A stretch of DNA of 64,000 nt from an uncultured Aquificales bacterium (GTDB lineage Bacteria > Thermosulfidibacterota > Thermosulfidibacteria > Thermosulfidibacterales > Thermosulfidibacteraceae): assembly GCA_964590075.1 (NCBI GenBank), contig CAZPXS010000005.1, positions 111,114-175,113 on the forward strand, in the 5' to 3' direction. Below the pieces are notes generated by a model. It did not search any database. It saw only the letters and a list, made by a program, of their open reading frames with translations, and was not told where the DNA came from. This document shows positions 6,800 through 37,329 of this stretch, in pieces; position 1 is the stretch's first letter; every line of letters begins with the position of its first letter. Position numbers and translations under genes: made by a program.

Positions 6800-7672
6800 A
6801 TGGTGAGGGAGGTTGTTCTAGTCTCTTCATCACCGAGAAGGAGTGAACTTTTAAGAAGGATAGTCCCCTTTTTTAAGGTAGTTAAACCTAACTTTGACGA
6901 TGAATCCCATAGTTCATCACCTATTGATAATGCGATTAAAAAGTTAGGTAGTGTTGAGAGAAGGGAGGGAACTATCTATATTTCTGCCGATACGGCCGTT
7001 ATTGTCGATGGTATGATCCTTGGGAAACCTAACGATAGAGAGGATGCGAGGAGGATGCTTAATTTACTTTCGGGAAGATGGCATATAGTTGAGACGGCGG
7101 TGGTAGTCAGTTTGAACGATTTGACTTTAAAGGAAGTTGTGAGAAGCGAGGTCAGATTTAGGGAGCTTATGGAGGATGAGATCGAGTTTTATCTCGACAC
7201 TGATGAACCTTACGATAAGGCCGGAGCCTATGGAATTCAGGGGTTTGCCGAGGTTTTTGTTAGTGAGCTTAGAGGTTCCTACAGTAATGTGGTTGGGTTG
7301 CCACTAGAGGCTACCTATAGGTTGTTAAGGAAAGTAGGGTATAGGCCTTTTAGGTATACAACTCTAGGTGAGTTTGCGGATATCGTGAGAAGCAAAAATG
7401 CTGGTCCCTTTATGTTAACCTTCGATATAATGTTTAGCGATTGGGATAGATACGTCTATTTTAAAGAGGGTAATTTTGTAAGTGTAGAGAGTTTTTGCGA
7501 ATACATGGGAATACCTTTGGAGGATGTGATAGTTTTCGAGTACTACGATAGTGCTCAGGCTTTGAAGATAACGGTGAAGAGGAACCCTCCATCGGGAAGT
7601 ATCTACGATGATGATATATACGGTGCAACGAGTTATGTGAAACTACTTAAGTATCCCATACCATTGGTCTGA
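6800..7672 (+). CDS. maf: Maf-like nucleoside triphosphate pyrophosphatase with an unusual ~95-aa C-terminal extension
   Basis: The N-terminal ~190 aa matches Maf/YhdE (VLVSSSPRRSELL ... GLPLEATYRLL). A continuous frame then adds a domain of unknown function with no stop in between. Confidence 0.75.
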   Translation: MVREVVLVSSSPRRSELLRRIVPFFKVVKPNFDDESHSSSPIDNAIKKLGSVERREGTIYISADTAVIVDGMILGKPNDREDARRMLNLLSGRWHIVETAVVVSLNDLTLKEVVRSEVRFRELMEDEIEFYLDTDEPYDKAGAYGIQGFAEVFVSELRGSYSNVVGLPLEATYRLLRKVGYRPFRYTTLGEFADIVRSKNAGPFMLTFDIMFSDWDRYVYFKEGNFVSVESFCEYMGIPLEDVIVFEYYDSAQALKITVKRNPPSGSIYDDDIYGATSYVKLLKYPIPLV

Positions 7673-17032: not shown

Positions 17033-18027
17033 CGTTCCCTTTTGTTACTCCTACGGGATACCGCATCGAGTTCGATTGAGGATCTGATACCCCTTTCGAA
17101 AAGGCAGGTTGCAAGGTAGGCTACCATAAGACCGTTATCTATGCACAGCTTTGGAGATGGAAAATATACCCTGATACCTTTTTTATCAGCCGTTTCCTTG
17201 AATTTTTCCCTGAGTCTTGAGTTACAGGCAACACCACCTGCAACAACAACCCTTGGTATCCCTCTCTCCTCCACAAGTTGTAATGTTTTTGCTATCAGAA
17301 AATCCACAACCCTCTCTTGGAAGGATGCGCATATATCCGCTATCAGTTCATCATCCAGATTCTGGTTCTTCACAAAGTTTACAACGTTAGTTTTTATGCC
17401 CGAGAAGCTAAAGTTGTAATCCGCGACCTTAGGTATAGGGAGCTTTATCTTTGAACTATCACCTTTTTTGGCTATTCTATCTATAATTGGGCCACCTGGG
17501 TATCCTAGATTAAGAATCTTGGCTACCTTATCAAAGGCTTCACCTGCCGCATCATCCAGTGTGATACCCACCTCCTCCACATCCAGATAATCCCTGGCAA
17601 CGAGTAAACTCGTATGTCCACCTGATACCACCAACCCTATAAACGGGAACTCAACTTCTTCTTCCAGCATTATGGCGAATAGATGTGCCTCGATATGATC
17701 GACCCCAACAAGTGGTATACCCGTTGCAAGATGAAGGGCTTTAGCAAAGGTCACTCCTATTATGAGGGATGGGATCAAACCAGGTCTATAGGTTACACCT
17801 ATACAGTCTATATCCTTGAGAGTTACCTTTGCCTCTTTTAAAGCACTATCAAAAAGTGGCAGGATATTATCGAGGTGCTTTCTCGCTGCGATTTCAGGTA
17901 CAACTCCTCCGAATAATGAGTGGATCTTGGCCTGTGAAGAGATGAGGTTAGAAAGTACCTCCCTTTTATCCTTAAGGACCGCTACACCTGTATCGTCACA
18001 GGATGTCTCAATCCCAACGACTATCAT
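17014..18027 (-). CDS. tsaD: tRNA N6-adenosine threonylcarbamoyltransferase (Kae1/TsaD family)
   Basis: MIVVGIETSCDDTGVAVL N-terminus with conserved His/Asp metal site motifs. The internal ATG is preceded by GGAGGA. 3' end overlaps mutS2 convergently by 19 nt. Confidence 0.85.
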   Translation of the reverse strand: MIVVGIETSCDDTGVAVLKDKREVLSNLISSQAKIHSLFGGVVPEIAARKHLDNILPLFDSALKEAKVTLKDIDCIGVTYRPGLIPSLIIGVTFAKALHLATGIPLVGVDHIEAHLFAIMLEEEVEFPFIGLVVSGGHTSLLVARDYLDVEEVGITLDDAAGEAFDKVAKILNLGYPGGPIIDRIAKKGDSSKIKLPIPKVADYNFSFSGIKTNVVNFVKNQNLDDELIADICASFQERVVDFLIAKTLQLVEERGIPRVVVAGGVACNSRLREKFKETADKKGIRVYFPSPKLCIDNGLMVAYLATCLFERGIRSSIELDAVSRRSNKRERYLTSK

Positions 18028-19574
18028 TCCTCTATCCTCCACTTCTCAATATTATACATTATCCCCGCCTTTTTAAGCTCTATCCCCTTTACCTTTCTAT
18101 GTAGGGCTATTAAGCTATCGGGGACATATAGGAAAATATAAGGTTGATCATCGTAGATCAACTTCTGTACCCTTCTATATATTTCTCTTCTCTTTCCGAG
18201 GTCAAACGTTGTTCTTGCAATCTCTAATAGTCTGTCAACCTCTTCGTTTTTGTATCCTATAAAGTTGAACTCTCCCGGTTGGGTTTTTGAGGAGTGCCAT
18301 ATATCGTAGGGATCGGAGTCAAAACCTGTTTGCCATCCAAGTAATACAGCCTGAAAGTTCCTCTCCTCTATGGTTCTGAGTAAAGCCTGCCATTCGAGAA
18401 CCCTTATGTTTACCTTTATCCCAAGTTTTTTTAGTTGGTACTGTATTATCTCTGCAGCAGCTATCCTCTGGTTGTTACCCTGGTTGGTTATTATCGTAAA
18501 TTCGAAAGTTTTTCCATCTTTGACGAGTACACCGTTTTTAAGTTTCCATCCCGCTTCTTCAAGTAGTTTCAAAGCCTTATCAGGATCGTATGGAAATGGC
18601 TTTAGATTGGGATCGTGATACTTTGAGCTTGGAGGGAATATTCCATTAGAGACACTTCCAAATCCAAGTAGGACAACGTCTACTATCATCTTTCTATCGA
18701 TACCGTAACAGAGGGCTTGTCTTACCCTTTTATCTTTAAATAGATCGAGTCTGAGGTTTAGGCCGAGGTAGGTGTAGGAAAAGGAAGGGTAATGGTAGCG
18801 GTTAAAGTTTTTTAAGAGGAAATCACTTTTTGTGAATTCCCTACTATACTGGAAGGGGCTGAGGTTCATAAGGTCGAGCTTTCCAGCCTTTAGTTCCATA
18901 AACATCGTTGAGGAATCGGGTATTATCCTGTAGATTATTCTATCTATCTGCGGCTTACCACCAAAGTAGTTTGGGTTTGCCCTTAGTTTTATGTATCTAC
19001 CTGTTTCCCACCTCTCCAGGATAAAGGGACCTGTGCCTACAGGGTATCTGTTGTACTTTGACCTATTTAAATCCTCATTTTTAAGTAGGTGTTCAGGAAT
19101 TATACCTGTCATCCAGGAATTTAGTGAAAAGGCATAGGGCTTCTTGTATCTTACTACAACTGTGTATTCATCGGGTGCGTAGACTTTATCTACAAGCATG
19201 AATTCACCGCTATAGGGAGTTGCAACGTTTGGATCCACTATCTTTTGGTAGGTAAAGATGACATCTCTGCTGGTAAAAGGTTTGCCATCGTGCCATAGAA
19301 CATTCCTTCTTAGGTGAAATACTATGGTTTTGCCACCATCCCTTATTTCCCAGCTTTCTGCAAGATCACCAACTACGTTTAGATCACCGTCGTATTTTAG
19401 AAGACCGTTGAATATGAGACCACTAACCGTGGCACTCGGGACATCAACGGCAAGTAGCGGCAGTAGTCTCTTAGGCTCTCCTATGCTCCCTATTGTTAGG
19501 GTAGAGGATATACACTTTGAGTAAAGGAGGAATAAGAATAGGATCGAGCTAATGGTTACCCTATACTTTCCCAT
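18024..19574 (-). CDS. ABC transporter substrate-binding protein, family 5 (peptide/nickel type). No permease or ATPase genes are adjacent.
   Basis: 516 aa with an N-terminal signal peptide. Length and motifs are typical of SBP_bac_5 (OppA/DppA/NikA-like). Confidence 0.7.
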   Translation of the reverse strand: MGKYRVTISSILFLFLLYSKCISSTLTIGSIGEPKRLLPLLAVDVPSATVSGLIFNGLLKYDGDLNVVGDLAESWEIRDGGKTIVFHLRRNVLWHDGKPFTSRDVIFTYQKIVDPNVATPYSGEFMLVDKVYAPDEYTVVVRYKKPYAFSLNSWMTGIIPEHLLKNEDLNRSKYNRYPVGTGPFILERWETGRYIKLRANPNYFGGKPQIDRIIYRIIPDSSTMFMELKAGKLDLMNLSPFQYSREFTKSDFLLKNFNRYHYPSFSYTYLGLNLRLDLFKDKRVRQALCYGIDRKMIVDVVLLGFGSVSNGIFPPSSKYHDPNLKPFPYDPDKALKLLEEAGWKLKNGVLVKDGKTFEFTIITNQGNNQRIAAAEIIQYQLKKLGIKVNIRVLEWQALLRTIEERNFQAVLLGWQTGFDSDPYDIWHSSKTQPGEFNFIGYKNEEVDRLLEIARTTFDLGKRREIYRRVQKLIYDDQPYIFLYVPDSLIALHRKVKGIELKKAGIMYNIEKWRIEE

Positions 19575-22560: not shown

Positions 22561-24039
22561 TTATAGGTTTATAATGCTTTTAAATTCATTAAGGCTAATA
22601 GGCTTTGATAACAGATATCCCTGTATATAGTCAATTCCTATACATCTCAAAATGTCGAGTTCAAGCTTTTCTTCCACCCCCTCTGCAACCGTTATAATCC
22701 CTTCCTTACCAGCTATAATTGATAAACCTGTAACCAACAAACTCTTTTCCTTTGAAATGTTTATCCCATTTATGAGTTCTCTATCTATCTTTATGATATC
22801 GGGGATTCTTTCGGATAGTATCTTTAGTGAGGTGTACCCTGTACCGAAGTCATCTATCGCTATATCGATAGGTATGTTGTTAGTCTTTATAATACTTTTG
22901 AGGTCCATTAGTAGAGTCATTACAAATTCGTCCATGATTTCCCTTTCCGTAAATTCAAAAACCAACCTTATGTTCTTTAAGTTTGCATTCTTTATCTTAT
23001 GAAGAACAGCTTCAAGAAAGTCGGGGTTGGTTATAATGTTAAGGGTTAGATTCAAGGATAGGGAAATCCTTCTATTAGTTAAATTGTCCAATTCGGTAGC
23101 TATTCTTACAGCCTCGTCTATGAGCCAGATTTCAAAGTCGAATATGTAGGGTGATCTTTCCAGAAAATCTATAAAATAACCCGGATTGTATACCCTGTTA
23201 TCCCTATCAACGATCCTTACTAGAAATTCTCCTCCTACCGGTTTTAGGTTCCATGAATCAAAGTATGGTTGTATGAGTAACTTAAATAGCTTTTCATTTA
23301 GAGCCCTCTCTATTAGTTGGGATAGCTCCTTATACTTTAATAGCCTTGTTACATCGAGTATGCTACTTACAACTTCAAGATCTTTTGCCGCCTTTTCTAT
23401 GAGTTCTTCCGGACTTACCCCATCATCTGGATATAAGGCTACACCGCATAGGAATCTATTCTCCTCTCTTCTTGATGTTCTTGGTAAGACTATCAGGTCC
23501 AAATTGGTTAGTACGCTTTCCAACGAGTATTCATCATCAAATGGAATAAAGATAACTACTGCCTTGTCGCTTAGCACACAGGTTTTAAATTCCTTCAGGT
23601 TTAATTTATAGGTAATATCAGTTATCTGTTCTTTTAATTCACTTAAACTAAAATTTAAAGGTTCGATTAAAATAATAAGTGACTTTTTACTTTTAGCGAG
23701 AAGTTCTTTTGTTACGCTTAAGAACACTTGTTTTTCTAAAAATGGTTCTTCAATTTTTTCTAAACATTGTCCCTCATTTAAGTCACAGACGTTTGATTTT
23801 AAGGGTGTTATTAAGTAATATTTATAACTTCTTCCTAAATTCAGATTTCCAGATTCAATATAGTTGTTTACCAAAAATCTATAATCATTCTTTTTTATCA
23901 GTTCAATTACATTTTCAGGATTTTCAAAGTTAGAATAGATAATTCCATCATTTTCATCTGTTACTATCATTAACCGACCTGTATATTTCAACACTTCTTC
24001 CAGAATCCGTAGAATCTCCCTATCCGTATGCTGGGTCAT
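22561..24039 (-). CDS. EAL-domain c-di-GMP phosphodiesterase with an N-terminal domain lacking a GG(D/E)EF motif
   Basis: The C-terminal EAL domain has the catalytic motifs EFLVR, FEFTE, DDFGTGYTS, KIDRE, EGVE and QGY. No GGDEF/GGEEF pentapeptide is visible. The coding region is very AT-rich. Confidence 0.75.
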   Translation of the reverse strand: MTQHTDREILRILEEVLKYTGRLMIVTDENDGIIYSNFENPENVIELIKKNDYRFLVNNYIESGNLNLGRSYKYYLITPLKSNVCDLNEGQCLEKIEEPFLEKQVFLSVTKELLAKSKKSLIILIEPLNFSLSELKEQITDITYKLNLKEFKTCVLSDKAVVIFIPFDDEYSLESVLTNLDLIVLPRTSRREENRFLCGVALYPDDGVSPEELIEKAAKDLEVVSSILDVTRLLKYKELSQLIERALNEKLFKLLIQPYFDSWNLKPVGGEFLVRIVDRDNRVYNPGYFIDFLERSPYIFDFEIWLIDEAVRIATELDNLTNRRISLSLNLTLNIITNPDFLEAVLHKIKNANLKNIRLVFEFTEREIMDEFVMTLLMDLKSIIKTNNIPIDIAIDDFGTGYTSLKILSERIPDIIKIDRELINGINISKEKSLLVTGLSIIAGKEGIITVAEGVEEKLELDILRCIGIDYIQGYLLSKPISLNEFKSIINL

Positions 24040-24679
24040 TCAAGCCTACCTCATCCCAAGCCTTTTTTCTCAGTCTACAGCTTGGGCACTCACCACAGGG
24101 TGGTACTTTCCCTTCATAGCAGGAGAGTGTGTACTTATAATCGACTCCAAGGGATAGACCGAGCTTTATTATCTCACTCTTCTTCATGTTTATAAGGGGT
24201 GACTCTATTCTTATGAGCCTACCAGCGGAACCTACATGGGTACCCAGATTTATGGCCCTTTCCATAGCATCTAGAAATTCTCTTCTACAATCGGGATAGC
24301 CCGAGTAATCAACTTGATTCCACCCACCTACTATAGCTTCCGCCTCCATATTTTCAGCAATTCCACAGGCTATCGATATAAATATACCGTTTCTAAAGGG
24401 AACATAGGTCGTCGGTATAGCATCTACCACCTCTTCCTTAGGTATTTCCATATCTTCGCTAAGTAGTGCACTTCTTAATATACTTTTGAGGTTGAGTTCT
24501 ATTATCTTATGCTTAACATTTAATTTTTTTGTGTGCCATTTTGCAAATTCAATCTCATATCTGTTTTTTTGACCATAATCGAAGGTTATAGCTATCACAT
24601 CCTCAAAATTTCTCTTAGCCCAGTAAAAAGCGGTTGTCGAATCCATCCCTCCCGAGAGAAGTACCACAGCCTTTCTCAA
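24020..24679 (-). CDS. queC: 7-cyano-7-deazaguanine synthase
   Basis: VVLLSGGMDSTT PP-loop and C-terminal zinc motif CGECPSCRLR. Probable TTG start at 24679 preceded by GGAGGAG; the ORF track extends it to a GTG at 24697. Confidence 0.85.
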   Translation of the reverse strand: MRKAVVLLSGGMDSTTAFYWAKRNFEDVIAITFDYGQKNRYEIEFAKWHTKKLNVKHKIIELNLKSILRSALLSEDMEIPKEEVVDAIPTTYVPFRNGIFISIACGIAENMEAEAIVGGWNQVDYSGYPDCRREFLDAMERAINLGTHVGSAGRLIRIESPLINMKKSEIIKLGLSLGVDYKYTLSCYEGKVPPCGECPSCRLRKKAWDEVGLNDPAYG

Positions 24680-24761
24680 TCCCACTCCTCCTCTCACAAC
24701 TTGATAATACTCGTTTTTATGTTATTATTAGTTACTACTATTTTCAAGTGAGGAGGCAAAG

Positions 24762-25872: not shown

Positions 25873-27261
25873 GTGAAAAGGGTTATTCTTGCTGGTGGTA
25901 GTGGTACAAGGCTCTGGCCACTTTCAAGAAAAAACTATCCCAAACAGTTTGTGAGATTAGCTAACGGCCTATCCTTCTTTCAGGAGACGGTTAGAAGGTT
26001 AGTGGATCTTGGTAGCTTGAGTGATCTGGTGGTAGTTGCATCCAGAGACTACAGGTTTCTTATAGAAGATGATCTCGTACCCATAGTAGGTAAGGACAAG
26101 TTCGATTTTGATAGAAACATAATTATAGAGCCCGAACCGAAGAATACAGCCTTTGCTATAGCCTGGAGTATACGCTATGGCTTGGAGTTCCTTGGTTGGA
26201 AAAGTGATGATATCGTTGGAGTCTTTCCTTCCGATCATCTCATAGAGCCTATCGATGCTTTTATAGAAACTGTAACTAAGGCTAAAAATCTAGCTGAGAA
26301 AAACTACATAGTTACCATAGGGATAAGACCCAAAAGGGCTGAGGTTGGTTTTGGTTACATCATGAGGGGTGAAAAAATAGGGGAGGGATGTTATCTAGTT
26401 GAGAAGTTTGTAGAAAAGCCATCCCTTGAACTAGCGGAGGTTTACCTTAGGGATGGGCGTTTTTACTGGAACGCGGGAATCTTTGTCTTCAATGTTGCCA
26501 CGATTATCGGGGAGATCTTAAAACATCTTCCCAGCTATAAAGTTATTTTTGATTCCTCCTGGGATAGGTTGATAGAGGGTGGGTATAGGTCTACCGAATC
26601 CATCTCCATAGATTACGGTGTCATAGAAAGGAGTGATAGGGTTGCTCTCGTTGAGGCTAGTTTTAACTGGAGTGACGTTGGATCATGGGATGCCTTTTGT
26701 GAGATTTTCGATGATTTTAATAATGGTAAGACTATACTGATAGATAGTAGTAATACATCCGTTATTTCCGATAGGAGGGTGATAGGGGTTATAGGGGTTG
26801 ATGATGTTGTAGTAGTTGATACCGATGATGCCCTTTTGGTTGCCAAAAAGGGTGAGACACAGAAGGTTAGAAAAATAGTGGATATACTCTCCAGTAACGG
26901 TTTTAGGGAGGCCATAGAGCATAGAACTGTATATAGACCTTGGGGTTCCTATACGGTTTTGGAAGAGGGTGATGGTTTTAAGGTTAAGAGAATCATGGTT
27001 AAACCAGGTGGAAGGTTGAGTTTACAGAGGCATTTTCATAGGAGTGAGCACTGGATCGTAATTAGAGGTACCGCGAAAGTGATAATAGGAGAGAGGGAAT
27101 TTTTCCTAAGGGAAAATGAGTCGACCTATGTCCCTCCGGCCACCATACATAGACTGGAAAATCCCGGGAAAATTCCACTTGAGATGATAGAGATCCAAAC
27201 CGGTTCCTACATAGACGAGGATGATATAGAGAGGCTCGACGACATTTACGGTAGATGTTAG
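25873..27261 (+). CDS. manC: Mannose-1-phosphate guanylyltransferase / mannose-6-phosphate isomerase (bifunctional, type II PMI)
   Basis: N-terminal nucleotidyltransferase motif (ILAGGSGTRLWPLSR) and C-terminal cupin. GTG start. Confidence 0.8.
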   Translation: MKRVILAGGSGTRLWPLSRKNYPKQFVRLANGLSFFQETVRRLVDLGSLSDLVVVASRDYRFLIEDDLVPIVGKDKFDFDRNIIIEPEPKNTAFAIAWSIRYGLEFLGWKSDDIVGVFPSDHLIEPIDAFIETVTKAKNLAEKNYIVTIGIRPKRAEVGFGYIMRGEKIGEGCYLVEKFVEKPSLELAEVYLRDGRFYWNAGIFVFNVATIIGEILKHLPSYKVIFDSSWDRLIEGGYRSTESISIDYGVIERSDRVALVEASFNWSDVGSWDAFCEIFDDFNNGKTILIDSSNTSVISDRRVIGVIGVDDVVVVDTDDALLVAKKGETQKVRKIVDILSSNGFREAIEHRTVYRPWGSYTVLEEGDGFKVKRIMVKPGGRLSLQRHFHRSEHWIVIRGTAKVIIGEREFFLRENESTYVPPATIHRLENPGKIPLEMIEIQTGSYIDEDDIERLDDIYGRC

Positions 27262-29639
27262 TGTTCTTCTAGAATGGAAGTGATTTCCTCAAGAGGCATC
27301 GGTCTGTAAAATAGATATCCCTGAAAGTATCTAACTCCCATCGATCTTAGCGTTTCGAACTGTTCTAAGTTTTCCACACCTTCAGCAACGACCGTTAAAC
27401 CTAGGTTGTGGCATAGCTTAACTATAGCCTCAAGGATTTTTATGTTTTGCATCAACCTTTTGTTACGGATTTCCAACTTTACATTACCACCAATAGAATT
27501 AATAACACCAAGTTCTGTTATAAGACTTCTATCTATTTTTACTCCATCTAAATCTAGCTTCGATATATAGTAAAAATTTGAATATCCACTACCAAAATCA
27601 TCTATCATAAATTTTATTCCACTCTCTTTTAATTCGTTTATTCTCTTTAAAGTTTCATCATCGATTTCCAGAAAATGACTTTCCGTTATTTCTAAATGTA
27701 AATTACTGATTTTATCACGCTTTTTAATGACTTCCAGTAGATTTTTACTTTTAAGAGTTAGTGCAGAAATATTGACGGATATAAAGATATCACTCTTTAG
27801 TCTTCTCAATTCATCGTTAAGACCGATGGTTTCACCTATTAACCTTGTCTCTACTTTTTCTATCAGTCTCGTCCTTTCCAGAATCGGGATGAACTCAGCT
27901 GGAGATACAAGCTTGCCATTTTTGGTAAGTCTCAGTAGACCTTCAAGTCCTACTATTTTAATATTTTCATCAACTATCGGTTGCCAGTAGTACCATAGTT
28001 TCTTCCTGTCGAGTAACTCGTCGATATCTCTTCTGATGTTTAAAATCTCCAAGCTCTTATTAATGACCTCCTCGTTATAAGTCGCTATTGATAGGGCTTC
28101 CTTTTTACCCGAGAATAAGGCTCTCCTTGCCCTATCCACAAGTTCAGGGACAGTTTTCCCATCCGTTGGATAGAAGGCTATTGATCCTCTAAAGGAAAGT
28201 TTTATTTTTCTACCCTCCACATCATATTCTTCAGATAACTCTTTTAGAATACGGTATAATCCGAGATAGGCTGAGTTCTCATCAGGGATGTTTCTCATAA
28301 ATATTAAAAATCTATCCGCCTCCGTCTTACCGATAAAATCTCCTTCGTATACCGTGTTTTTCAGTCTTCTAGCAATTTCTCTTAGGGTTTTATTTCCAAA
28401 ATCGAAACCGTACGCGGTATTTATGTAACCAAAGTCAAGTGGGTCTACCATGGCTACCGCGTAGATCCCATTTTTTTCGGTCGAGATTATCTCTGATACT
28501 ATATCTATGAAGTAAGCTTCCTTTGGAATTTCTGTTATAGGATCAAAAATTATACGATTTTTAATCTGTTCGATGAGTTCTTTGCTTTTATCAAGATCTT
28601 TATCAGCCACTACAAACATTGATATTGTTTCACTATTCAAATTCAAAGCTTCAATTAAAGCATCTATTATTCTTTTATTTGCTATTTTTTCTAAATTATT
28701 TTCGATTGTTTTCTTCAATACATCGAATATTGTTTTCATAGAAGGTTCGATATAATCTTTGTCAACCGAACATAAAACTAGAATTTGTCTAATTTTTTCT
28801 ATGGGTATTATAACCAAGTTAGCGATATCGCATGTATAGAAATATATGTCATTAGATTCTCTTACCAGAGATTTAACTAAGTTAAGTATTCTGTTATAAC
28901 TATCTGGTTCTATCTTTGTAAAATACCCTATGTTTTGTAATTCATCATTTTCTTCTAGCTTTAAAACGATTCCAATATCAACTTTTGTGTTCTCTTCTAT
29001 CAGTTTGAGTAGATTTAGCATGTAATCGTTACAGTTATGAATATTATCTTCCAAGAGGGTATAGGACTTTGCTAGTAATGTATCGAATTCTTTTTGTTTT
29101 TCGACCTTTAGGCCCATTCTTAGATTGGTGAGGTATTTGGATAGGGTTTCTTTAATATCGTTTAGTAGCGTCTTGTATTCTTCTAATATTGATTTTTCCC
29201 TGTCATGAATTAAAATTACATACTCTACCTCATCCTCGATCAGTATAGGTATTGAGGTGGAGCTTTCTATCCCGAATAGAGAGTAGAAATCGTACCAGGG
29301 TTTTGTATCTGGATGATTTAAAACGTCTTCGATAATATAGGCTTCTTTGGTGTAGTAAGCCCATCCTACCGAGCCGTGTTGTGAGGGTAAACCTTCTGGG
29401 AGTTTTATTCTTACCTTTTGGATATAGTTTACAACTTCTTCATCCTGACAACTTACGAATACGGGAATCCATTCTCTGGAGGATTTATCGATCTTACCCA
29501 AGGTGACACTATAGTACCCTATGCTGTTCAATCCTCTCACAAATCCTTTAAGAATGTCCTCCACTTGTGTTTCTTCCGTAAGTGCTTTGGTAAGTACTAG
29601 ATATGCGTGTATTGATTTTTTGTAACTATTTATTTCCAT
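27258..29639 (-). CDS. GAF / degenerate-GGDEF / EAL signalling protein (likely c-di-GMP phosphodiesterase)
   Basis: GGDEF-fold region with EADRF in place of GGDEF. Intact EAL motifs (EGLLRL, EITE, DDFGSGYS, KIDRS, EGVE, QGY). ATG at 29639 with AAGGGG RBS; the ORF track extends it to a TTG at 29669. The middle third has about 22% GC. Confidence 0.8.
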   Translation of the reverse strand: MEINSYKKSIHAYLVLTKALTEETQVEDILKGFVRGLNSIGYYSVTLGKIDKSSREWIPVFVSCQDEEVVNYIQKVRIKLPEGLPSQHGSVGWAYYTKEAYIIEDVLNHPDTKPWYDFYSLFGIESSTSIPILIEDEVEYVILIHDREKSILEEYKTLLNDIKETLSKYLTNLRMGLKVEKQKEFDTLLAKSYTLLEDNIHNCNDYMLNLLKLIEENTKVDIGIVLKLEENDELQNIGYFTKIEPDSYNRILNLVKSLVRESNDIYFYTCDIANLVIIPIEKIRQILVLCSVDKDYIEPSMKTIFDVLKKTIENNLEKIANKRIIDALIEALNLNSETISMFVVADKDLDKSKELIEQIKNRIIFDPITEIPKEAYFIDIVSEIISTEKNGIYAVAMVDPLDFGYINTAYGFDFGNKTLREIARRLKNTVYEGDFIGKTEADRFLIFMRNIPDENSAYLGLYRILKELSEEYDVEGRKIKLSFRGSIAFYPTDGKTVPELVDRARRALFSGKKEALSIATYNEEVINKSLEILNIRRDIDELLDRKKLWYYWQPIVDENIKIVGLEGLLRLTKNGKLVSPAEFIPILERTRLIEKVETRLIGETIGLNDELRRLKSDIFISVNISALTLKSKNLLEVIKKRDKISNLHLEITESHFLEIDDETLKRINELKESGIKFMIDDFGSGYSNFYYISKLDLDGVKIDRSLITELGVINSIGGNVKLEIRNKRLMQNIKILEAIVKLCHNLGLTVVAEGVENLEQFETLRSMGVRYFQGYLFYRPMPLEEITSILEEH

Positions 29640-29747
29640 AGCACGCCCCTTGTTAGATATATATTTCAAAACAATATATCATTTCAATAGAGTTTAACAC
29701 CATTCCGATACTTCATATAATATCAGTTTTCTTAATCTATCCTTATC

Positions 29748-29776
29748 TTGACATGGTACCACTTAGAACATATAAA
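29748..29776 (+). promoter_or_regulatory. Sigma-70-type promoter for the tRNA-Leu/tRNA-Arg transcript
   Basis: TTGACA (29748-29753), 17-nt spacer, TATAAA (29771-29776). tRNA-Leu starts about 25 nt downstream. Confidence 0.45.
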
Positions 29777-29800
29777 ATCATTAGCGATGACTTTAGTGTT

Positions 29801-29886
29801 GCCGGAGTGGCGGAACTGGGAGACGCAGGGGACTCAAAATCCCCCGGGGTTTGAGCCCCGTGCGGGTTCGACTCCCGCCTCCGGCA
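29801..29886 (+). tRNA. tRNA-Leu (anticodon CAA)
   Basis: Manual fold: acceptor GCCGGAG/CTCCGGC, anticodon loop CTCAAAA, long variable arm (GGGG-TTTGAG-CCCC), T-arm GCGGG-TTCGACT-CCCGC, discriminator A. The 3' CCA is not encoded. Confidence 0.85.
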
Positions 29887-29901
29887 TTTTTTCTAAATAG
29901 C

Positions 29902-29978
29902 GCGCCCATAGCTCAACTGGATAGAGCACGGGACTACGGATCCCGGGGTTGGGGGTTCGACTCCTCCTGGGCGCGCCA
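29902..29978 (+). tRNA. tRNA-Arg (anticodon ACG)
   Basis: Manual fold: acceptor GCGCCCA/TGGGCGC, D-arm GCTC..GAGC, anticodon stem CGGGA/TCCCG with loop CTACGGA, T-arm GGGGG-TTCGACT-CCTCC, discriminator G. CCA is encoded and followed by a T-run. Confidence 0.85.
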
Positions 29979-30017
29979 TTTTTTAAATTTATTCTAGGAT
30001 AACTAAGGAAACGCATA

Positions 30018-32645
30018 ATGACGATAATTTTAACTCACGATAACACGGATTTCGATGCCCTTGCCTGTCTCATCGTAGCTAAAAAACTCTATAAGGATGC
30101 CGTAGCCGTAATACCCAATTCCCCCGAAAAAAACGTGAAAGAGTTCATAGAGAGAATGAATCTTGAACCTGCTCTCGTTCCTATAGGTAAGATAGACTTT
30201 AGAAAGGTAGAGAAGGTGGTACTTGTGGATTTTAAGAGATCCGATAGAAGCCATGCTTTCGAAAAATTGGTACAGGAAGGAGTTAGCCCTGAGATCCATA
30301 TCATTGATCATCATTCTCCTCACGAGAGGGATGTAAAGGGTGATATCACTATAATCGACGAGGTAGGAGCCTGCTCAACCCTTATGTTTGAGATAATAGA
30401 GAAAGAAGGGATTGAGCTTGATCAACTTGAGCTATCACTTCTTCTACTGGGAATATATGAGGATACAGGATTTTTCACCTTCTCTTCCACCACCTCTAGA
30501 GACCTGATAGCTGGAGCTAAACTTCTAAGTAAAGGGGCCGACTTATCGTTAGTTTCAGAGTTTCTAAAGAGGGAACTTACTCCCATACAACTTGATATTC
30601 TTAACGAGATGGTAAAAAACGCCTACACCATAAGGGTGGGAGGAGTTGAGGTTGTTATTACGGAATTTAGTAGAGATGAATATATTCCCGATATTGCAGT
30701 TCTAACCCATAAGGTTAAGGAGATTCTGGGAGCCTCGGTTCTCTTCGTTATAGCAAGGCTCGGTGATAGACTCTCCATAATAGCAAGGAGCGACGTTGAC
30801 AAAATCGATGTAGGTAAGATCCTATCAAATTTTGGAGGTGGTGGTCACAAATACGCTGCAAGTTGCACGGTAAAGGATCTTACACCGATTCAGGTTAGGG
30901 AAAGACTTGTGGAAATAGTATCCAACTCTCTCGCGAGAAAACTCACAGCTAAGGATATAATGACGGTGCCTCCTATAATAGTCTTCCCTCATGCCACTTT
31001 GAAAGAGGCGGAGGAGATACTCCTAAAGTTCAACATAAACGCGTTACCTGTTGTTAGTGATAGAGATGGGAAGGTTTTGGGTATAATTACGAGACAGATC
31101 GTGGAGAGAGCTTTATACCATGGTTTAGCTGAATCAAAGGTAGAGGATTACATGATAACCTCGATGGCCATCGCTAGCGAGGATACACCGATCGATAAAC
31201 TCGAGGAGATGATGTTGACGAAACTACAGAGAATAATACCTGTTGTTGATGACTCTGGAGTTCTGGTAGGAGTCGTAACAAGGGGAGAACTTCTAAAAGC
31301 GGTTTACGAGGAAACCTACAGGGAAACCTATAAAAGGGAAGCAGGCCTATTTAGAAAAAATGTTTACAGTCTCTTCCGAGAGAGGGTACCGAAGAGGATA
31401 CTCGATATAATAGAGACGGCAAGGGAGGTTGGTGAATCCTTAGGTCTAAATGTGTATGTTGTTGGCGGTTTTGTTAGGGATCTCATACTTAAGGTAGAAA
31501 ATTATGATCTTGATTTTGTTGTTGAAGGGGATGGAGTAACCTTTGCCAAGGTTTTTGCAGAAAGACTCAACTGTAGGGTAAGTATTCACGAGAAGTTTGA
31601 AACGGCGGTTGTTATATTCCCCGACGGCTACAGGGTGGACGTTTCAACAGCGAGGATGGAGTATTACGAGTCACCGGCAAGTCTACCTAAGGTGGTGAGA
31701 GGTTCGATTAAACGAGATCTCTATAGGAGAGATTTCACCATAAATGCTATGGCGGTAAAGGTTACGGGAGAGGATGCCTATACCCTTTTTGACTACTACG
31801 GAGGCATGAGGGATATAAAGGATAGGCTTATAAACGTTATTCATAATCTTAGCTTTGTTGAAGATCCAACGAGAGCCTTTAGAGCCGTCAGATTTGAACA
31901 GAGATACAACTTCCGAATAGGACCACAGACAGAGAGACTTATAAAAATAGCGATAAAGGAAGGTATATTTGAGAGGTTAAGTGGTAAAAGGATATTCAAC
32001 GAATTAAAACATATGCTTTCGGAGAAGAATGCTTTAAAAATGATCAAAAGGATGGAGGAACTCGGCATTCTAAGATACATTCATCCTAAGTTGAAATGTG
32101 ACATAGAGATGGAGAGAGCTTTTGAGAGTGTGAGGGAGGTGATAGCCTGGTATGAGTTACTGTTTAAGAGGGAACAACCCGAGGCATGGCTTGTGAACAT
32201 GATGGCTCTTCTATTCAGATTAGACGTGAAGGAGATAGAGAGTATAGCGCTATGGTTTAACCTTTCGAGAGAGGAAAGGGAAGCTCTCTTATTAGGTATT
32301 ACAAAATTTAAAGAGGTATTGTCTAAATTGACCACTACCAACGATAGGGTCGAGATATACTGGCTATTGAAGCCCTATCCTCTTGAAGCTCTTCTCTTCT
32401 TTCTTGCCATGGCTGAGGATGATGAGGCTAAGCAGAAAATCGGAATTTTTCTCATGGAACTTTTAGATGTTAAGACTGAGATATCAGGTAGGGACATACT
32501 CAATCTTGGGGTAAAGCCTGGACCTATCGTTGGGGCTCTTCTTAAAAAGGTTCTTGAGGCGAGGGTAAGGGGTGAGGTCAAAAGTAGGGATGAAGAGCTA
32601 AACCTTGCAAGTAGATTGGTTAGGGAAATTATAGCTACTACTTAA
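30018..32645 (+). CDS. Multidomain DHH/DHHA1 phosphoesterase - CBS pair - tRNA nucleotidyltransferase/poly(A) polymerase head-domain protein (candidate CCA-adding enzyme)
   Basis: 875 aa. N-terminal DHH motifs (LTHDNTDFDALA; IIDHH), GGGH of DHHA1, two CBS-like segments, then Pol-beta-type nucleotidyltransferase (GGFVRD...DLDF) and an RNA-binding tail. Confidence 0.7.
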   Translation: MTIILTHDNTDFDALACLIVAKKLYKDAVAVIPNSPEKNVKEFIERMNLEPALVPIGKIDFRKVEKVVLVDFKRSDRSHAFEKLVQEGVSPEIHIIDHHSPHERDVKGDITIIDEVGACSTLMFEIIEKEGIELDQLELSLLLLGIYEDTGFFTFSSTTSRDLIAGAKLLSKGADLSLVSEFLKRELTPIQLDILNEMVKNAYTIRVGGVEVVITEFSRDEYIPDIAVLTHKVKEILGASVLFVIARLGDRLSIIARSDVDKIDVGKILSNFGGGGHKYAASCTVKDLTPIQVRERLVEIVSNSLARKLTAKDIMTVPPIIVFPHATLKEAEEILLKFNINALPVVSDRDGKVLGIITRQIVERALYHGLAESKVEDYMITSMAIASEDTPIDKLEEMMLTKLQRIIPVVDDSGVLVGVVTRGELLKAVYEETYRETYKREAGLFRKNVYSLFRERVPKRILDIIETAREVGESLGLNVYVVGGFVRDLILKVENYDLDFVVEGDGVTFAKVFAERLNCRVSIHEKFETAVVIFPDGYRVDVSTARMEYYESPASLPKVVRGSIKRDLYRRDFTINAMAVKVTGEDAYTLFDYYGGMRDIKDRLINVIHNLSFVEDPTRAFRAVRFEQRYNFRIGPQTERLIKIAIKEGIFERLSGKRIFNELKHMLSEKNALKMIKRMEELGILRYIHPKLKCDIEMERAFESVREVIAWYELLFKREQPEAWLVNMMALLFRLDVKEIESIALWFNLSREEREALLLGITKFKEVLSKLTTTNDRVEIYWLLKPYPLEALLFFLAMAEDDEAKQKIGIFLMELLDVKTEISGRDILNLGVKPGPIVGALLKKVLEARVRGEVKSRDEELNLASRLVREIIATT

Positions 32646-32656: not shown

Positions 32657-33979
32657 GTGAAATTTATAATCCATCTACATTTCTATCAGCCTCCAAGGTA
32701 CGATCCGAAAAGTGGTAATTACTACGTGGAGGAAAGTGCTTATCCCTTTAAGAACTGGAACGAAAGGATATCGGCGGAATGTTACAAACCTATCATACCA
32801 ATGTTACCCTATGTTAGCTACAATTTTGGTCCTACCCTGATCGAATGGATGAAGAAGGAAAAGCCAGAGCTATTTAAGAGTGTAGTTGAAATCACAAGAA
32901 GGGTAAAGGGTGCTATCTTTCAGCCCTACTATCATATAATAATGCCGCTTGCAGATAATTTCATGAAGGAGGTTAACTTTGTCTGGGGTATCAGGTATTT
33001 TAAAAGAATCTTTGGTTTTTCTCCTATAGGTTGCTGGCTTCCCGAGTGTGCGGTCGATACCGCAACTCTCAAGATTATGAGGAAGGAGGGTGTAAGATTC
33101 ACCATACTAGGGGAGGATCAGGTTAGGGGAAGTAGGGGTAGTGGCCTATATAGGGTAAGGGGTATCGATGGCCTCTATGTCTTTGTCTTTGATAGACCCG
33201 TTTCCGGGACCATAGCTTTCGGGGATGAGAGATTCTATAGGAAGGATCTGGTTAACTATATCGGGAAAGAAATAAGGAGAAAGGGAATAGTTATTTCTGC
33301 GACCGATGGTGAAACATTCGGACATCATAAAAAGGAAGGTATTAGGGCACTAAAGAAGCTTTTTAGGGCAGATTTACTCGGATTTTCCTTAAACGATGCC
33401 TTTAAGTTAGATTTGGTAAAAGGGGAAGTGGAGGTTATCGATAATACATCCTGGAGTTGTCCACACGGTTTGGTAAGGTGGTATGATCACTGCGGTTGTT
33501 CCACCGGTACCCATCCCGGTTGGAACCAGAGGTGGAGAAGACCCTTGAGGGAAGCCATGAATTGGTTAACCGATAAGGTCTATAGGTTTATGTTCCCATT
33601 TTTTGAGGAGTTGAACCTCGATTATAGAAGTCTCATTTTGTCCTATGTTGATTACATGAGCTACCCCGAGTGGGTTGTTTACGGTTGGTTGGGTGATTTT
33701 ACTAAGATAAAGGATGATAAGCTTTTGAGGAGGATAAAACTGTTTCTCGATTGTTATAGGTTCTGTATCGCCATGTACACATCCTGTGGTTGGTTCTTCG
33801 ATGATCCGACGGGTCCAGAAACACAGATAGTTCTAAGATTTGCAAAAAGGGTTGTGGAGATTCTGGAAGAAATCACAGGTTACCATATAGAGGAAGGCTT
33901 TCTCGATAGGTTGGCTAACGCAAAAAGCAACGTCCCCCTCTTTGGGACGGCAAGAGAAGTTTACAGAAGACTCAATTAA
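32657..33979 (+). CDS. Glycoside hydrolase family 57 protein (alpha-glucan-active enzyme)
   Basis: 440 aa. The N-terminal HLHFYQPPR motif and overall pattern are typical of GH57. Confidence 0.65.
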   Translation: MKFIIHLHFYQPPRYDPKSGNYYVEESAYPFKNWNERISAECYKPIIPMLPYVSYNFGPTLIEWMKKEKPELFKSVVEITRRVKGAIFQPYYHIIMPLADNFMKEVNFVWGIRYFKRIFGFSPIGCWLPECAVDTATLKIMRKEGVRFTILGEDQVRGSRGSGLYRVRGIDGLYVFVFDRPVSGTIAFGDERFYRKDLVNYIGKEIRRKGIVISATDGETFGHHKKEGIRALKKLFRADLLGFSLNDAFKLDLVKGEVEVIDNTSWSCPHGLVRWYDHCGCSTGTHPGWNQRWRRPLREAMNWLTDKVYRFMFPFFEELNLDYRSLILSYVDYMSYPEWVVYGWLGDFTKIKDDKLLRRIKLFLDCYRFCIAMYTSCGWFFDDPTGPETQIVLRFAKRVVEILEEITGYHIEEGFLDRLANAKSNVPLFGTAREVYRRLN

Positions 33980-34769
33980 AGTGAATCCTGATCTTTCTTG
34001 ATCTCCAATCGGGGAATCTACTAGCTACACTTCCCAGATAAATGAATATCTCAAGCACATCAAAACTACCTATTACAGCCGATAGACCTTTACCTTTTGC
34101 ACTTTCAAAGTTTGGGTATATACCACTTACCTCTACATCCCCAAAGGTTATATTTTTAATATCTCTATCTATGAGCATGCTTTTTTCTATGTTGGTTATG
34201 ATATTTCCGAAGCTATCCGCAAATAGAGCCACACCTTCAATATAGTCTTCTCCTACGGTTACCTCTGGAATACTGATATCAACTATCTCCCTTCTTTCTA
34301 TAGGTTTTGCCACAGAGATTATAGGTAGTCCAAGTGATAAGAAGGCAGAGATAGGAGCAAATATATCCCTACCGTGGAAGGTGCTACTTGTGGGCTTTAA
34401 GTAGTAACTACTATTGTCGATATAATATATCCTGTCTCCTTCCTCAAAGATGTTTGAAAGGAGGCCGTTATCGGGAGCCAAAAATATATAGTCTTGTTTT
34501 AACTTATAAAGAATCAGTATTCTTCTTGAGGTTCCAACCTGTGGATCTACAACAGAGACGAATATGGTACCGCTGGGGAAAAATCTGTAGGACCTTTTTA
34601 GGATAAAAGAGGCCTCGATAACATTTCCCGCCTCTATCTCGTGGGTTAGATCTATCAAGGTAACGTCTCTATTGATACTTAAAATAACACCTTTCATTAT
34701 TCCAACAAAACAACTGTTACCAAAATCGGTAAGAAGTGTAATTATTCTCTTTACCTCTCTATCCTCCAT
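33972..34769 (-). CDS. S-adenosyl-L-methionine hydroxide adenosyltransferase (DUF62, fluorinase/chlorinase-like family)
   Basis: 265 aa. Conserved LTDFG and APDNGLL motifs. Overlaps the GH57 gene convergently. Confidence 0.7.
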
Positions 34770-36196
34770 GACGTTGTACCATCCGGCTTATCCTCAAGCA
34801 CTATACCTTTGCTCTTAAGATAATCTCTGATTTCATCGGCCCTTTTGAAGTTTTTCTCCTTTCTCGCTACCCTCCTTTCCTCAACCAGTTTCTCTATCTC
34901 TTCAACGGGAAGAGGTAAACCTTCGCTACTCATTTTGAACCATCTATCAGGTTCCTCTAAAAGTATTCCAAACACATCGTTTATGTCATTTATGAATTCC
35001 CTCATTATCCTGGATATCGATATTTTTTGAGATTTTGATAGTCCTCCGTGCTCTATGAGCCTATTGTAATCCCTTACGGCTTCGAAAAATTTTGCAAGGG
35101 CTATAGCGGTGTTAAAATCATCATCCATGGCACTATAGAAACCTTCCCTGTATTCATTAAACTTTTGCTCAATATCCTTACTGATACCTGACTCTTGATC
35201 GTAGGAGTCTTTTAGGATTTCCCCTATCCTTTCCTTTGTTCTATAGAGTTTATCAAGTGCTTCCTTCTCCGCTTCGATCTTTTCGTAGCTAAAGTCAAAG
35301 GGACTTCTATAGTGCACTCTCAGAAAGGCGAGTTTTAAAGCATCCGGATGGTAGCTGTTTAGTATATCCCTTATAAGAATTATGTTACCAAGGGACTTAC
35401 TCATCTTCTCTCCCTTTATATTTACAAAACCGTTGTGTAACCAGTATCTTACGAAAGGCTTACCCGTTGCTGATTCGCTCTGGGCTATCTCGTTTTCATG
35501 GTGTGGAAATATCAGATCCATACCCCCACCATGGATGTCGAAGGTTTCTCCGAGATACTTCATACTCATGGCGGAACATTCTATATGCCATCCCGGTCTT
35601 CCCTTACCCCATGGTGATTCCCAGTATGGTTCTCCGGGCTTTGATGATTTCCATAGGGCAAAATCAAGTGGATTCTTTTTTCTCTCATCCACTTCGATTC
35701 TTGCACCCGCTAACAATTCCTCCTTCTTTCTACCCGATAGTTTCCCATAATCCTTGAACTTATCTACCTCAAAGTATACATCTCCATCTACAACATAGGC
35801 GTAACCCTTATCCACGAGGATATTCACAAGATCGATTATCTCCTTTATGTGCTCTGTAGCCTTGGGTTCATAGGTTGGTTTTATAAGGTTGAGTTTTTCA
35901 GTATCCTCGTAGTAAGCCAGTATGTACTTTTCGGCTATCTCTTTCCAGCTTTTATTTTCTCTGTTAGCCATATTTATTATCTTATCGTCTATATCTGTAA
36001 AGTTTCTAACGAACTTTACCTTATAGCCCTTCTTCATAAGGTATCTTACTATTACGTCGAATACCACGAGGTTTCTCGCATGACCTATATGGCAATAATC
36101 GTAAACAGTTACTCCGCAGGTGTATATTCCTATCTCTCCATCTCTTAGAGGTATAAGATCCTCTTTTTTAAAACCCATTGTGTTTGTCACCAACAT
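34751..36196 (-). CDS. cysS: Cysteinyl-tRNA synthetase
   Basis: 481 aa. HIGH motif (CHIGHARN), KMSKS motif (KMSKS), zinc-binding Cys. AAGGAGGAG RBS. Confidence 0.9.
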
Positions 36197-37247
36197 GACT
36201 AAACTCCTCCTTGATCTTTAGTATATCTTCAAGGCTCTCCATAAAAGCATCGGTAATGGCAGGATCGAATTGTTTCCCCGAATTTTCCTTTATAATCCTT
36301 ATTACTTCCCAGGTATCCATGGCTTTTCTGTAAACTCTATCTGAGGTACAGGCATCGAAAAAGTCCACAATTGCCACGATTCTTGCCTCAAGTGGTATCT
36401 CCTCGCCTCTAATACCAAAGGGATAGCCTGTACCATCCCATCTCTCGTGATGGTATAGTGCTATGTTTGCAGCACATACCAACAGAGGATGTTCGGAACC
36501 ACTTAGTATATCATAGCCAATAAGAGTGTGTTTCTTTATAATCTCGAATTCTTCCTCCGTTAATTTACCAGGTTTTAGCAAGATGTTGTCAGGGATTCCT
36601 ATCTTACCTATATCATGCATGGGTGAGGCTAACCCGATCAATCTACACCTTTCTCTGTTTAATCCAAGGGTTTCGGCTATCTTTCTTGACATTATACCTA
36701 CTCTCTTTGTATGCCATCCTGTATCGTCGTCTCTGTATTCTGCCGCTTTACCCAATCTATGGATAACCTCTTCGTGTACAGCCTCGAGTTTATTTATGGC
36801 TTCCTTTAGGATTTTTGTTCTCTTTTCCACCTCCTCCTCGAGTAACCTATTATAGCTATCCATAAGTTCATAATAGTTCTTAACCTTTATGGAGTTGGTT
36901 AGTCTTATGATAAGGTCTTCTCTATCATAAGGTTTGGTTATAAAATCGTGTGCTCCCTTTTCGAAGGCTATTTTCTTTGTTTCGCTATCTTCTAAAGCTG
37001 TAACGACTATAACGGGTGTTCTATTTAGATCGTACTTTTCGGATAGTCTTTCCAATACCTCAATACCACTCATTTCTGGCATTATGATATCTAATATAAC
37101 CACATCAGGTTTTTCCCTTTCATATAATTCTATAGCTTCCTTTCCACTAGTTGCGGCTATAACCTCGTAACCATAGAGTCTAAGGATTCCAGAGAGGGTT
37201 ATAATATTTATATCCTCATCGTCAACCACCAAAACCTTTCCTTTCAT
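36168..37247 (-). CDS. Response regulator with HD-GYP c-di-GMP phosphodiesterase output domain
   Basis: CheY-like receiver (VLVVDDE ... D of ILDIIMP) plus HD-GYP ([11 protein letters not shown]). ATG at 37247 with TAGGAGGG RBS; the ORF track extends it to 37277. Confidence 0.8.
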
Positions 37248-37329
37248 TTTCCCTCCTAACCTGATATTATAATACAAACTAAACTATAAAACAAACTAAA
37301 CATAATACAATCTTGGTGGAGGGGTAAAG

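Follow-up and report, generated by a model that had tools for sequence, protein, structure and literature searches.

The fusion of an N-terminal nanoRNase-like domain and a CBS pair to a class II polymerase is an architecture already known among bacterial tRNA nucleotidyltransferases, typified by Thermotoga maritima TM0715, Aquifex aeolicus AQ_411 and Synechocystis Sll1253 and described over its full length by the NCBIfam model NF041569. Here we analyse a member of this type encoded in a 64,000-nucleotide (nt) stretch of contig CAZPXS010000005.1 from an uncultured Aquificales bacterium of the Thermosulfidibacteraceae (the whole stretch is hereafter the window), in which the gene follows two tRNA genes. 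As cited in PMC7947759, the fusion has been noted since Tomita and Weiner (2001), and in view of that record and of the NF041569 model we rejected the notion of an unrecognised architecture. The native T. maritima protein, which has been shown to add the full CCA, also carries the nanoRNase (Nrn) and CBS domains (PMC8208693, PMC13514080). A nanoRNase/pAp-phosphatase-like domain is likewise joined to the A-adding architecture in Sll1253, in the Geobacter sulfurreducens enzyme and in enzymes of the Desulfovibrio type (PMC11622646, PMC7947759), and Nrn and CBS domains are carried by CCA- and A-adding enzymes alike (PMC13514080, 2026). Papers published between 2020 and 2026 treat these domains as a characteristic of the enzymes.

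The N-terminal extension is frequent in A-adding enzymes, where "its function is still unclear" (PMC7947759, 2020). The catalytic nucleotidyltransferase activity in vitro is unaffected by the N-terminal module (PMC13514080), a survey of DHH/DHHA1 proteins contains a "CCA-adding enzymes" cluster (PMC9757072), and no published function for the DHH-CBS module of these enzymes was found in the literature searched. The initial annotation of the window had stated that the role of a DHH and CBS module in such fusions is not established, which agrees with PMC7947759 and PMC13514080.

The gene analysed here encodes an 875-amino-acid (aa) open reading frame (ORF) that starts 39 nt downstream of the CCA of tRNA-Arg, and it is an ordinary member of this known, curated and widespread family. 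We consider it probable that the ORF is an orthologue of the bacterial tRNA nucleotidyltransferases with an N-terminal nanoRNase-like domain and a CBS pair, its C-terminal half being a CCA-end polymerase, its N-terminal half a tethered phosphoesterase, and the upstream tRNAs incidental. The features of the locus are the following.

29748-29776, plus strand: candidate sigma-70-type promoter, with TTGACA at 29748-29753, a 17-nt spacer and TATAAA at 29771-29776 (read from the sequence)
29801-29886, plus strand: tRNA-Leu(CAA), class II, with a long variable arm (ARAGORN; Rfam RF00005, 53.4 bits, gathering score 29; sequence)
29902-29978, plus strand: tRNA-Arg(ACG) at 29902-29975 with a genomic CCA at 29976-29978, then TTTTTT (ARAGORN; Rfam, 61.7 bits; sequence)
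30005-30009, plus strand: Shine-Dalgarno-like AAGGA, 8 nt before the ATG (sequence; AGGAG at a similar distance in a 75% identical relative)
30018-32645, plus strand: 875-aa ORF, predicted Nrn(DHH/DHHA1)-CBS-class II tRNA nucleotidyltransferase, A- or CCA-adding (ORF call, Pfam, NF041569)
30024-30923, plus strand: DHH (aa 3-146) and DHHA1 (aa 227-302) phosphoesterase module (Pfam, motif conservation, Foldseek)
30948-31307, plus strand: CBS pair, aa ~311-430 (Pfam CBS, 2.8e-25, two stretches)
31317-31346, plus strand: flexible linker, aa 434-443, joining the N-terminal module to the nucleotidyltransferase (AlphaFold2 predicted local distance difference test score, pLDDT, below 50)
31452-32642, plus strand: class II nucleotidyltransferase, with head 479-605, neck/RNA-binding region 631-693, and body and tail to 875 (Pfam, PDB, Foldseek)
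32657-33979, plus strand: GH57 and DUF3536 gene, starting 12 nt after the fusion-gene stop codon (Pfam)

Pfam annotation bore out the order given in the initial annotation, from DHH/DHHA1 through two CBS domains to a nucleotidyltransferase head (PolyA_pol, 479-605) and an RNA-binding tail (PolyA_pol_RNAbd, 631-693), and added a weak tRNA_NucTran2_2 match at the C-terminus. The N-terminus of the protein aligns with the N-termini of its homologues. The best NCBIfam model is NF041569 ("A-adding tRNA nucleotidyltransferase"), which aligns residues 1-869 of the protein with model positions 1-878 of 880 and is also the top model for the DHH and CBS parts taken alone (251 bits for the N-terminal 310 aa and 98 bits for the CBS part). 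In an AlphaFold2 model computed with 60 homologues (mean pLDDT 89.8; predicted template modelling score, pTM, 0.52), pLDDT falls below 50 at residues 434-443 only, and the protein is thus modelled as two confidently folded halves joined by a flexible linker. A Foldseek search of the PDB returned no solved chain covering both halves.

The fusion is widespread. A protein search found it in 2245 clusters at E<=1e-10, the best 120 of which are uniform in their five-domain composition, and a genome scan placed it in at least 596 species genomes. The genome loci studied below are those of the best 80 of these at least 596 species, belonging to Desulfobacterota, Nitrospirota and Methylomirabilota, with a best match of 42% identity. 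The nearest named relative, 75% identical, is encoded in a Thermosulfidibacteraceae metagenome-assembled genome (GCA_049968655.1, locus L005).

Both domains of the polymerase half exceed their Pfam gathering scores (PolyA_pol, 102.8 bits, cutoff 23; PolyA_pol_RNAbd, 35.6 bits, cutoff 22). Motif A comprises GGFVRD at 483-488, D497xD499 and a third carboxylate, D541; motif B is RRDF at 570-573 and motif D is EDPTR at 615-619 (E615, D616 and R619). The initial annotation had made its reading depend on the catalytic carboxylates of the head, and these (D497, D499 and D541) are intact. The motif residues are invariant or nearly so in alignments of 60 and 139 homologues that are 38-75% identical to the window protein, with invariance counted in the sequences covering each residue.

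Among solved structures, residues 447-861 match best, in sequence and in fold, the T. maritima TM0715 enzyme (3H37, 2e-82, 281 bits; PDB 3H37-3H3A and 5HC9), whose solved structure covers the C-terminal half only and with which the window protein shares motifs A-E. The A. aeolicus A-adding enzyme AQ_411 (PDB 1VFG and 4WBY-4WC6) is matched by the same residues at ~1e-60 and 209 bits (4WBY/1VFG); it has the same kind of N-terminal extension as the window protein and gives the tightest fold match, the Foldseek template modelling scores of the C-terminal half, relative to the target, being 0.77 for T. maritima and 0.87 for Aquifex (root-mean-square deviation 3.0). These likenesses suggest that the C-terminal half would act as a protein-templated polymerase of class II, finishing or restoring the CCA end of tRNAs. 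Sll1253, the G. sulfurreducens A-adding enzyme and the Desulfovibrio type (acquired by Acanthamoeba as Ntr4) are ~40-44% identical to the window protein; they or close relatives of theirs have been assayed, whereas the window protein is known from sequence.

A different arrangement is seen in E. coli Cca, which likewise combines a class II tRNA nucleotidyltransferase with a metal-dependent phosphoesterase in one protein and offers a functional analogy for 3'-end healing. Its phosphoesterase, however, is a C-terminal HD domain and it has no CBS pair, whereas the DHH/DHHA1 module of the window protein is N-terminal. No HD domain was matched by Pfam in the window protein, and the E. coli-type Cca model NF008137 scores 98.1 bits against a cutoff of 451.

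The N-terminal half carries the complete motif set of the DHH/DHHA1 phosphoesterases. Both domains exceed their Pfam gathering scores (DHH, 42.0 bits, cutoff 28.1; DHHA1, 31.3 bits, cutoff 25.9), with DHH motifs I (D11/D13), II (D71), III (D97-H98-H99) and IV (D149), and with GGGH at 274-277 in DHHA1. These residues are conserved in 130-139 of 139 relatives, the shortfalls corresponding to ORF-calling gaps, to glutamate in place of D149 in nine sequences and to a single glutamate at 276; R257-S258 of DHHA1 also varies little or not at all. Across the 139 members the phosphoesterase site is therefore as strictly conserved as the polymerase site, which argues that an extension reported as dispensable is a working enzyme and no relic.

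Comparison of residues 1-310 with the PDB gave E-values of 1e-11 to 4e-14 for DhhP, the catalytic domain of GdpP, TM1595 and NrnA, and of only ~1e-4 for family II pyrophosphatases (2ENX and 1I74). Foldseek likewise places GdpP, TM1595, NrnA and DhhP nearest to the N-terminal half (E-values 1e-16 to 1e-18), and its ARS...GGGGH nucleotide-binding segment aligns with theirs. The window module has all the DHH motifs and the GGGH of these proteins, but it is only ~22-24% identical to them, and they are stand-alone enzymes whereas here the module shares one chain with a CBS pair and a polymerase. The NrnA orthology model NF053633 scores 49-53 bits against a cutoff of 350, so that the likeness is one of fold and motifs and not of orthology.

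The second CBS domain has a ribose-binding-type motif, G418-V-V-T-R-G-E, where the family consensus is G-V-I-T-R-x-D and the general form G-h-h-T-R-x-D/E. The best precedent for gating by such a pair is provided by the CBS-containing family II pyrophosphatases, in which a DHH-superfamily hydrolase is combined with an adenine-nucleotide-sensing CBS pair (PMC7226116, PMC11172384). Unlike the window protein, these have a DHHA2 domain, a CBS pair placed within the DHH domain, and a DRTGG domain. The N-terminal half thus most likely folds on its own into a metal-dependent phosphoesterase of the GdpP/NrnA/DhhP type that is competent for catalysis, and by analogy with the CBS-pyrophosphatases the binding of an adenine nucleotide to the CBS pair probably gates its activity (PMC7226116, PMC11172384). 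Candidate substrates would be the 3' end of a short single-stranded RNA, a nanoRNA, oligonucleotide or dinucleotide, or a pAp-like 3'-phosphate.

The 64-kb window contains exactly two tRNA genes by ARAGORN, tRNA-Leu(CAA) and tRNA-Arg(ACG), both confirmed with Rfam. The acceptor strands of tRNA-Leu are GCCGGAG and CTCCGGC, and since TTTTTTCTAAATAGC comes straight after the discriminator A29886, this tRNA has no encoded CCA; the ARAGORN register for it is off by one base, and its coordinates were taken from sequence reading and Rfam. In tRNA-Arg the acceptor strands are GCGCCCA and TGGGCGC, and the discriminator G29975 is followed by CCA. Sequence, ARAGORN and Rfam thus bear out the initial annotation, which had described a CCA-less tRNA-Leu beside a CCA-bearing tRNA-Arg.

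The TTGACA-17-TATAAA promoter proposed there was also found as an exact match. It is the only exact match in the window, where shuffled sequences lead to an expectation of 0.03, it would start transcription ~15-18 nt 5' of tRNA-Leu, and in the 75% relative TTGAC of the -35 element and TATA of the -10 element occupy the same position. A second promoter-like site, TTAACA-16-TATAAT (29694-29721, plus strand), lies 54 nt 5' of the TTGACA site and has 11 of the 12 consensus positions. It scores better, but it is not conserved in the 75% relative, and we rejected it as the actual tRNA promoter; it could alternatively belong to the region of a divergent GGDEF-EAL gene.

In the 39-nt spacer between tRNA-Arg and the ATG we found neither a promoter-like site nor a terminator hairpin, and folding of this region returned the T-arm only (z-score 0.87). 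Because the promoter match is unique and the spacer is devoid of both elements, it is plausible that tRNA-Leu, tRNA-Arg and the enzyme gene lie on one transcript. Of the co-transcription of the tRNAs asserted in the initial annotation this plausibility is what stands, as a reading drawn from the sequence. Operons that combine tRNAs with an mRNA are well known, the E. coli tRNA-tufB operon being an example. In the scheme that we propose, both tRNAs and the enzyme gene would probably be transcribed from TTGACA-17-TATAAA and the tRNAs released by RNase P and 3' processing. The GH57 gene probably shares a transcription unit with the fusion gene, and it is plausible that a single predicted transcript runs from tRNA-Leu through tRNA-Arg and the enzyme gene into the GH57 gene.

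Comparison with relatives indicates that the tRNA neighbourhood is particular to this lineage. In the 75% relative the gene is preceded by the same pair of tRNAs (9796-9969), neither with an encoded CCA: its tRNA-Leu is followed by TAACC, and its tRNA-Arg ends GCG-CTA, then TTTT, so that the CCA of the window tRNA-Arg is one transition away from CTA. As neither of these tRNAs encodes its CCA, it appears that this lineage has to make CCA de novo. The fusion gene has no tRNA immediately before it in the 80 distant relatives, where the nearest is 1.5 kb off in one locus, or in four intermediate relatives (48-58% identity), and the upstream tRNA pair is thus restricted to the window species and the 75% relative.

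Among the 80 distant loci the conserved upstream neighbour is a recombinase resembling XerD. The conserved downstream neighbours encode a small membrane protein that may be a peptidase, or have the look of trpS, scpA, scpB and a pseudouridine synthase gene. As judged from N-terminal sequences, these are housekeeping genes. The tRNA adjacency is probably a lineage-specific accident that lies outside the mechanism of the enzyme, and it needs no functional cause, because, with many lineages sampled and a few dozen tRNA loci in each, chance allows such a placement in one of them. The initial annotation had taken the pairing of a CCA-less with a CCA-bearing tRNA as informative on the enzyme, a claim that does not survive the absence of an adjacent tRNA in 84 of 84 other relatives and of an encoded CCA in both tRNAs of the 75% relative. 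Its statement that a CCA-adding activity is required does hold for tRNA-Leu, but most bacteria have the same need and it is not special here.

Whether the polymerase half adds A76 alone to a tRNA ending in CC or adds the whole CCA is the first point on which readings diverge. We lean towards A76 alone, which would imply a separate CC-adding enzyme elsewhere in the genome, and regard addition of the whole CCA as the lesser, still substantial possibility. For the polymerase half, identity is 42-44% with the fusions of Geobacteraceae, Geomonas and Desulfovibrio, against 37% with the T. maritima and 35% with the Aquifex enzyme, and in a neighbour-joining tree of this half the window protein nests with the Geobacteraceae and Desulfovibrio fusions, the T. 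maritima and Aquifex enzymes being outgroups. Geobacter has separate CC- and A-adding enzymes, and the G. sulfurreducens enzyme is experimentally A-adding (PMC7947759); Acanthamoeba Ntr4, ~40% identical to putative Desulfovibrio A-adding enzymes, adds A only (PMC7947759; listed among the references of PMC11784652). With A addition both in the Geobacter/Ntr4 clade and in Aquifex, bracketing therefore favours addition of A alone. Several observations weigh against the preferred reading. The best PDB sequence match is a CCA-adding enzyme, that of T. maritima; the NF041569 score, 784.9 bits, is under the curated equivalog cutoff of 1440, so the NCBI rule would not call the protein an A-adding enzyme; and the flexible loop P553-A-S-L-P557 (family consensus P-A/G-A-L-P), of the PAALP type called characteristic of A-adding enzymes (PMC7947759), does not discriminate, because the CCA-adding T. 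maritima enzyme has PAKLP. A second class II enzyme is absent from the 64-kb window, where tblastn returned the gene itself only, both with the window's own polymerase half as query and with a fragment of the Aquifex CC-adding enzyme reconstructed from the alignment to PDB 3WFO. As to the N-terminal half, DHH hydrolysis and the CBS ligand are predicted from sequence and analogy, and the AlphaFold2 model leaves the mutual placement of the two halves undefined. That the protein might be a sole, complete CCA-adding enzyme like TM0715, with no CC-adding partner, is somewhat doubtful. It accords with the top structural match and the NF041569 score, with the carriage of Nrn and CBS domains by CCA-adding enzymes as well (PMC13514080), and with the need for de novo CCA in the lineage, for tRNA-Leu here and for both tRNAs of the 75% relative; for a tRNA-Leu encoded without CCA the cell needs a means of CC addition, in this enzyme or in a partner elsewhere. 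It also accords with the failure to find a second enzyme, either in the window or with the Aquifex fragment in a collection of 5.8 billion proteins, where 39 matches were obtained, all the named ones from Aquificae and none identifiable as Thermosulfidibacterota, in a word-index search blind to a divergent partner. The missing partner is, however, uninformative, as the search of the organism's own genome was confined to 64 kb, and the near-equal identities to T. maritima and Aquifex, both outgroups, together with a nearer clade that includes experimentally split CC/A systems (PMC7947759, PMC8208693), tell against it. A CC-adding or second nucleotidyltransferase gene within 3 kb of the fusion was found in none of the 80 genomes. 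A poly(A) polymerase in place of a tRNA CCA-end enzyme is barely credible: some homologue records are named "polyA polymerase" or "polynucleotide adenylyltransferase", and the Pfam domain is called PolyA_pol, but the PcnB models fall far below their cutoffs (TIGR01942, 108.8 bits against 305.65; NF008634, 63.5 against 702) and the characterised proteins nearest to it are enzymes that add CCA or A to tRNA.

For the N-terminal half, the reading of the initial annotation was that the tRNA pair and the fusion form a functional unit for ligand-regulated healing or quality control of tRNA 3' ends, which would clear 2',3'-cyclic phosphate, 3'-phosphate or damaged nucleotides before re-addition. We judge this rather unlikely. 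The family-wide conservation of the DHH/DHHA1 site, which must hence be selected as an enzyme, a fusion kept stably in at least 596 species and the plausible co-transcription with the tRNAs are in its favour, as is the analogous, non-homologous HD phosphoesterase domain of the E. coli CCA enzyme. NrnA-type enzymes, moreover, have the pAp 3'-phosphatase and short-oligonucleotide exonuclease chemistry that it calls for (PMC9757072, PMC5593865). The lack of tRNA adjacency in all 84 other relatives and the non-conserved difference in encoded CCA argue against it, however, as do the lack of effect of the N-terminal module on nucleotidyltransferase activity in vitro (PMC13514080), a model in which the two active sites have no set position relative to each other (pTM 0.52 and a disordered linker) and the literature found, which reports no activity on tRNA ends. 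Apart from the tRNA pair, the invariant DHH/DHHA1 site and the CBS pair might serve nucleotide-gated 3'-end processing of the single-stranded NCCA tail, by removal of a 3'-phosphate or 2',3'-cyclic phosphate or by trimming of A76; the evidence for this unlikely proposal consists of active-site conservation and fusion stability. If it were true, this activity and the A-adding domain together would let the protein switch the chargeability of tRNA reversibly, or restore it, under the control of energy charge or a second messenger. A fused inorganic pyrophosphatase that clears the pyrophosphate from nucleotide addition under CBS regulation is very improbable. There are weak family II matches (NF003877 at 37-40 bits, PRK14869 variants, and PDB 2ENX and 1I74 at ~1e-4), and a DHH domain with CBS domains is the hallmark of CBS-pyrophosphatases (PMC7226116), but the second domain is a DHHA1 with GGGH and DHHA2 gives no match, the CBS pair follows DHHA1 and does not lie inside the DHH domain, all the models are far under their cutoffs (54 bits against 411 for the best), and the nucleotide phosphodiesterase matches are better by 8-10 orders of magnitude in E-value. 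Taken as the phosphoesterase of the preferred reading, the N-terminal module may heal or trim tRNA ends for the adjoining polymerase or may be a co-inherited housekeeping nanoRNase, two roles that the sequence does not separate.

The initial description of the gene was accurate, and what the locus adds is narrow: the phosphoesterase site is strictly conserved, and the extension is GdpP/NrnA-like and not pyrophosphatase-like. The open role of the N-terminal module is already recognised in the literature, and the window locus gives no special handle on it; the tRNA neighbourhood, being lineage-specific, should not steer hypotheses. Regulated 3'-end repair is no more testable here than in the characterised Thermotoga, Aquifex and Synechocystis enzymes, and these proteins, which have already been expressed, are a better starting point for the function of the extension.

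Among the Aquifex CC-adding homologues retrieved, P0125-P0155 are ~300-320 aa long and comprise head and neck, with Hydrogenothermaceae, Sulfurihydrogenibium and Aquificae as named sources. The Aquifex CC-adding enzyme itself has 525 aa and related fragments carry an HD domain; the ~300-320-aa homologues may be a shortened CC-adding form. The proven CC-adding partner in Aquifex, and the 35% identity of the polymerase halves, set the A-adding enzyme of that genus apart from the window protein, as the demonstrated addition of full CCA and the outgroup position at 37% identity do TM0715.

The GH57 and DUF3536 gene begins directly after the fusion-gene stop codon, or overlaps it, in the window, in the 75% relative and in three of the four relatives at 48-58% identity; the relatives with this arrangement are P0002, P0005, P0016 and P0026. 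It is found in none of the 80 Desulfobacterota/Nitrospirota loci. Its product has 437-440 aa in the window and the Thermosulfidibacteraceae against 562-601 aa elsewhere, with the GH57 match starting at profile position 70 and half of DUF3536 covered, and it has no obvious functional link to tRNA metabolism. In the relatives the gene lies at the following positions.

L005, 12643-13956: GH57 and DUF3536 gene
L089, 6606-8294: GH57 and DUF3536 gene
L090, 6670-8475: GH57 and DUF3536 gene
L091, 6625-8421: GH57 and DUF3536 gene

Convergent to the window GH57 gene is a SAM hydroxide adenosyltransferase gene (SAM_HAT_N/C; 33972-34769, minus strand), which overlaps the gene of a cysteinyl-tRNA synthetase-type class I synthetase by 19 nt, and the 3' end of the GH57 ORF contains a terminator-like minus-strand hairpin (33949-33931).

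Divergent from the tRNA promoter region is the gene of an 803-aa protein with a weak GAF domain, GGDEF and EAL (27258-29669, minus strand), which has extra PAS domains in the 75% relative, and 3 kb beyond it lies a gene for a 492-aa EAL-only protein (22561-24039, minus strand). Both belong to cyclic di-GMP signalling and have no evident tie to the fusion gene. The window also holds several tRNA-related genes, which encode a class I aminoacyl-tRNA synthetase with a valyl-tRNA synthetase C-terminal arm, a glycyl-tRNA synthetase beta subunit, TsaD, QueC and the cysteinyl-type synthetase just mentioned; this richness is probably a coincidence.

228-2867, 11582-13651, 17014-18042, 24020-24697 and 34751-36196, both strands: tRNA-related housekeeping genes

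Elsewhere in the window, a 290-aa ORF (6800-7672, plus strand) fuses a Maf-like domain, of a nucleotide pyrophosphatase family, to DUF4387 and sits in a row of cell-wall and shape genes with LpxK, a penicillin-binding protein and an FtsW/RodA-family protein. A 17-nt unit, TATAATACAAACTAAAC, is repeated 2.6 times at 37268-37310, at the start of the ORF of an HD-domain response regulator (36168-37277, minus strand), and continues into the intergenic region before the next plus-strand gene.

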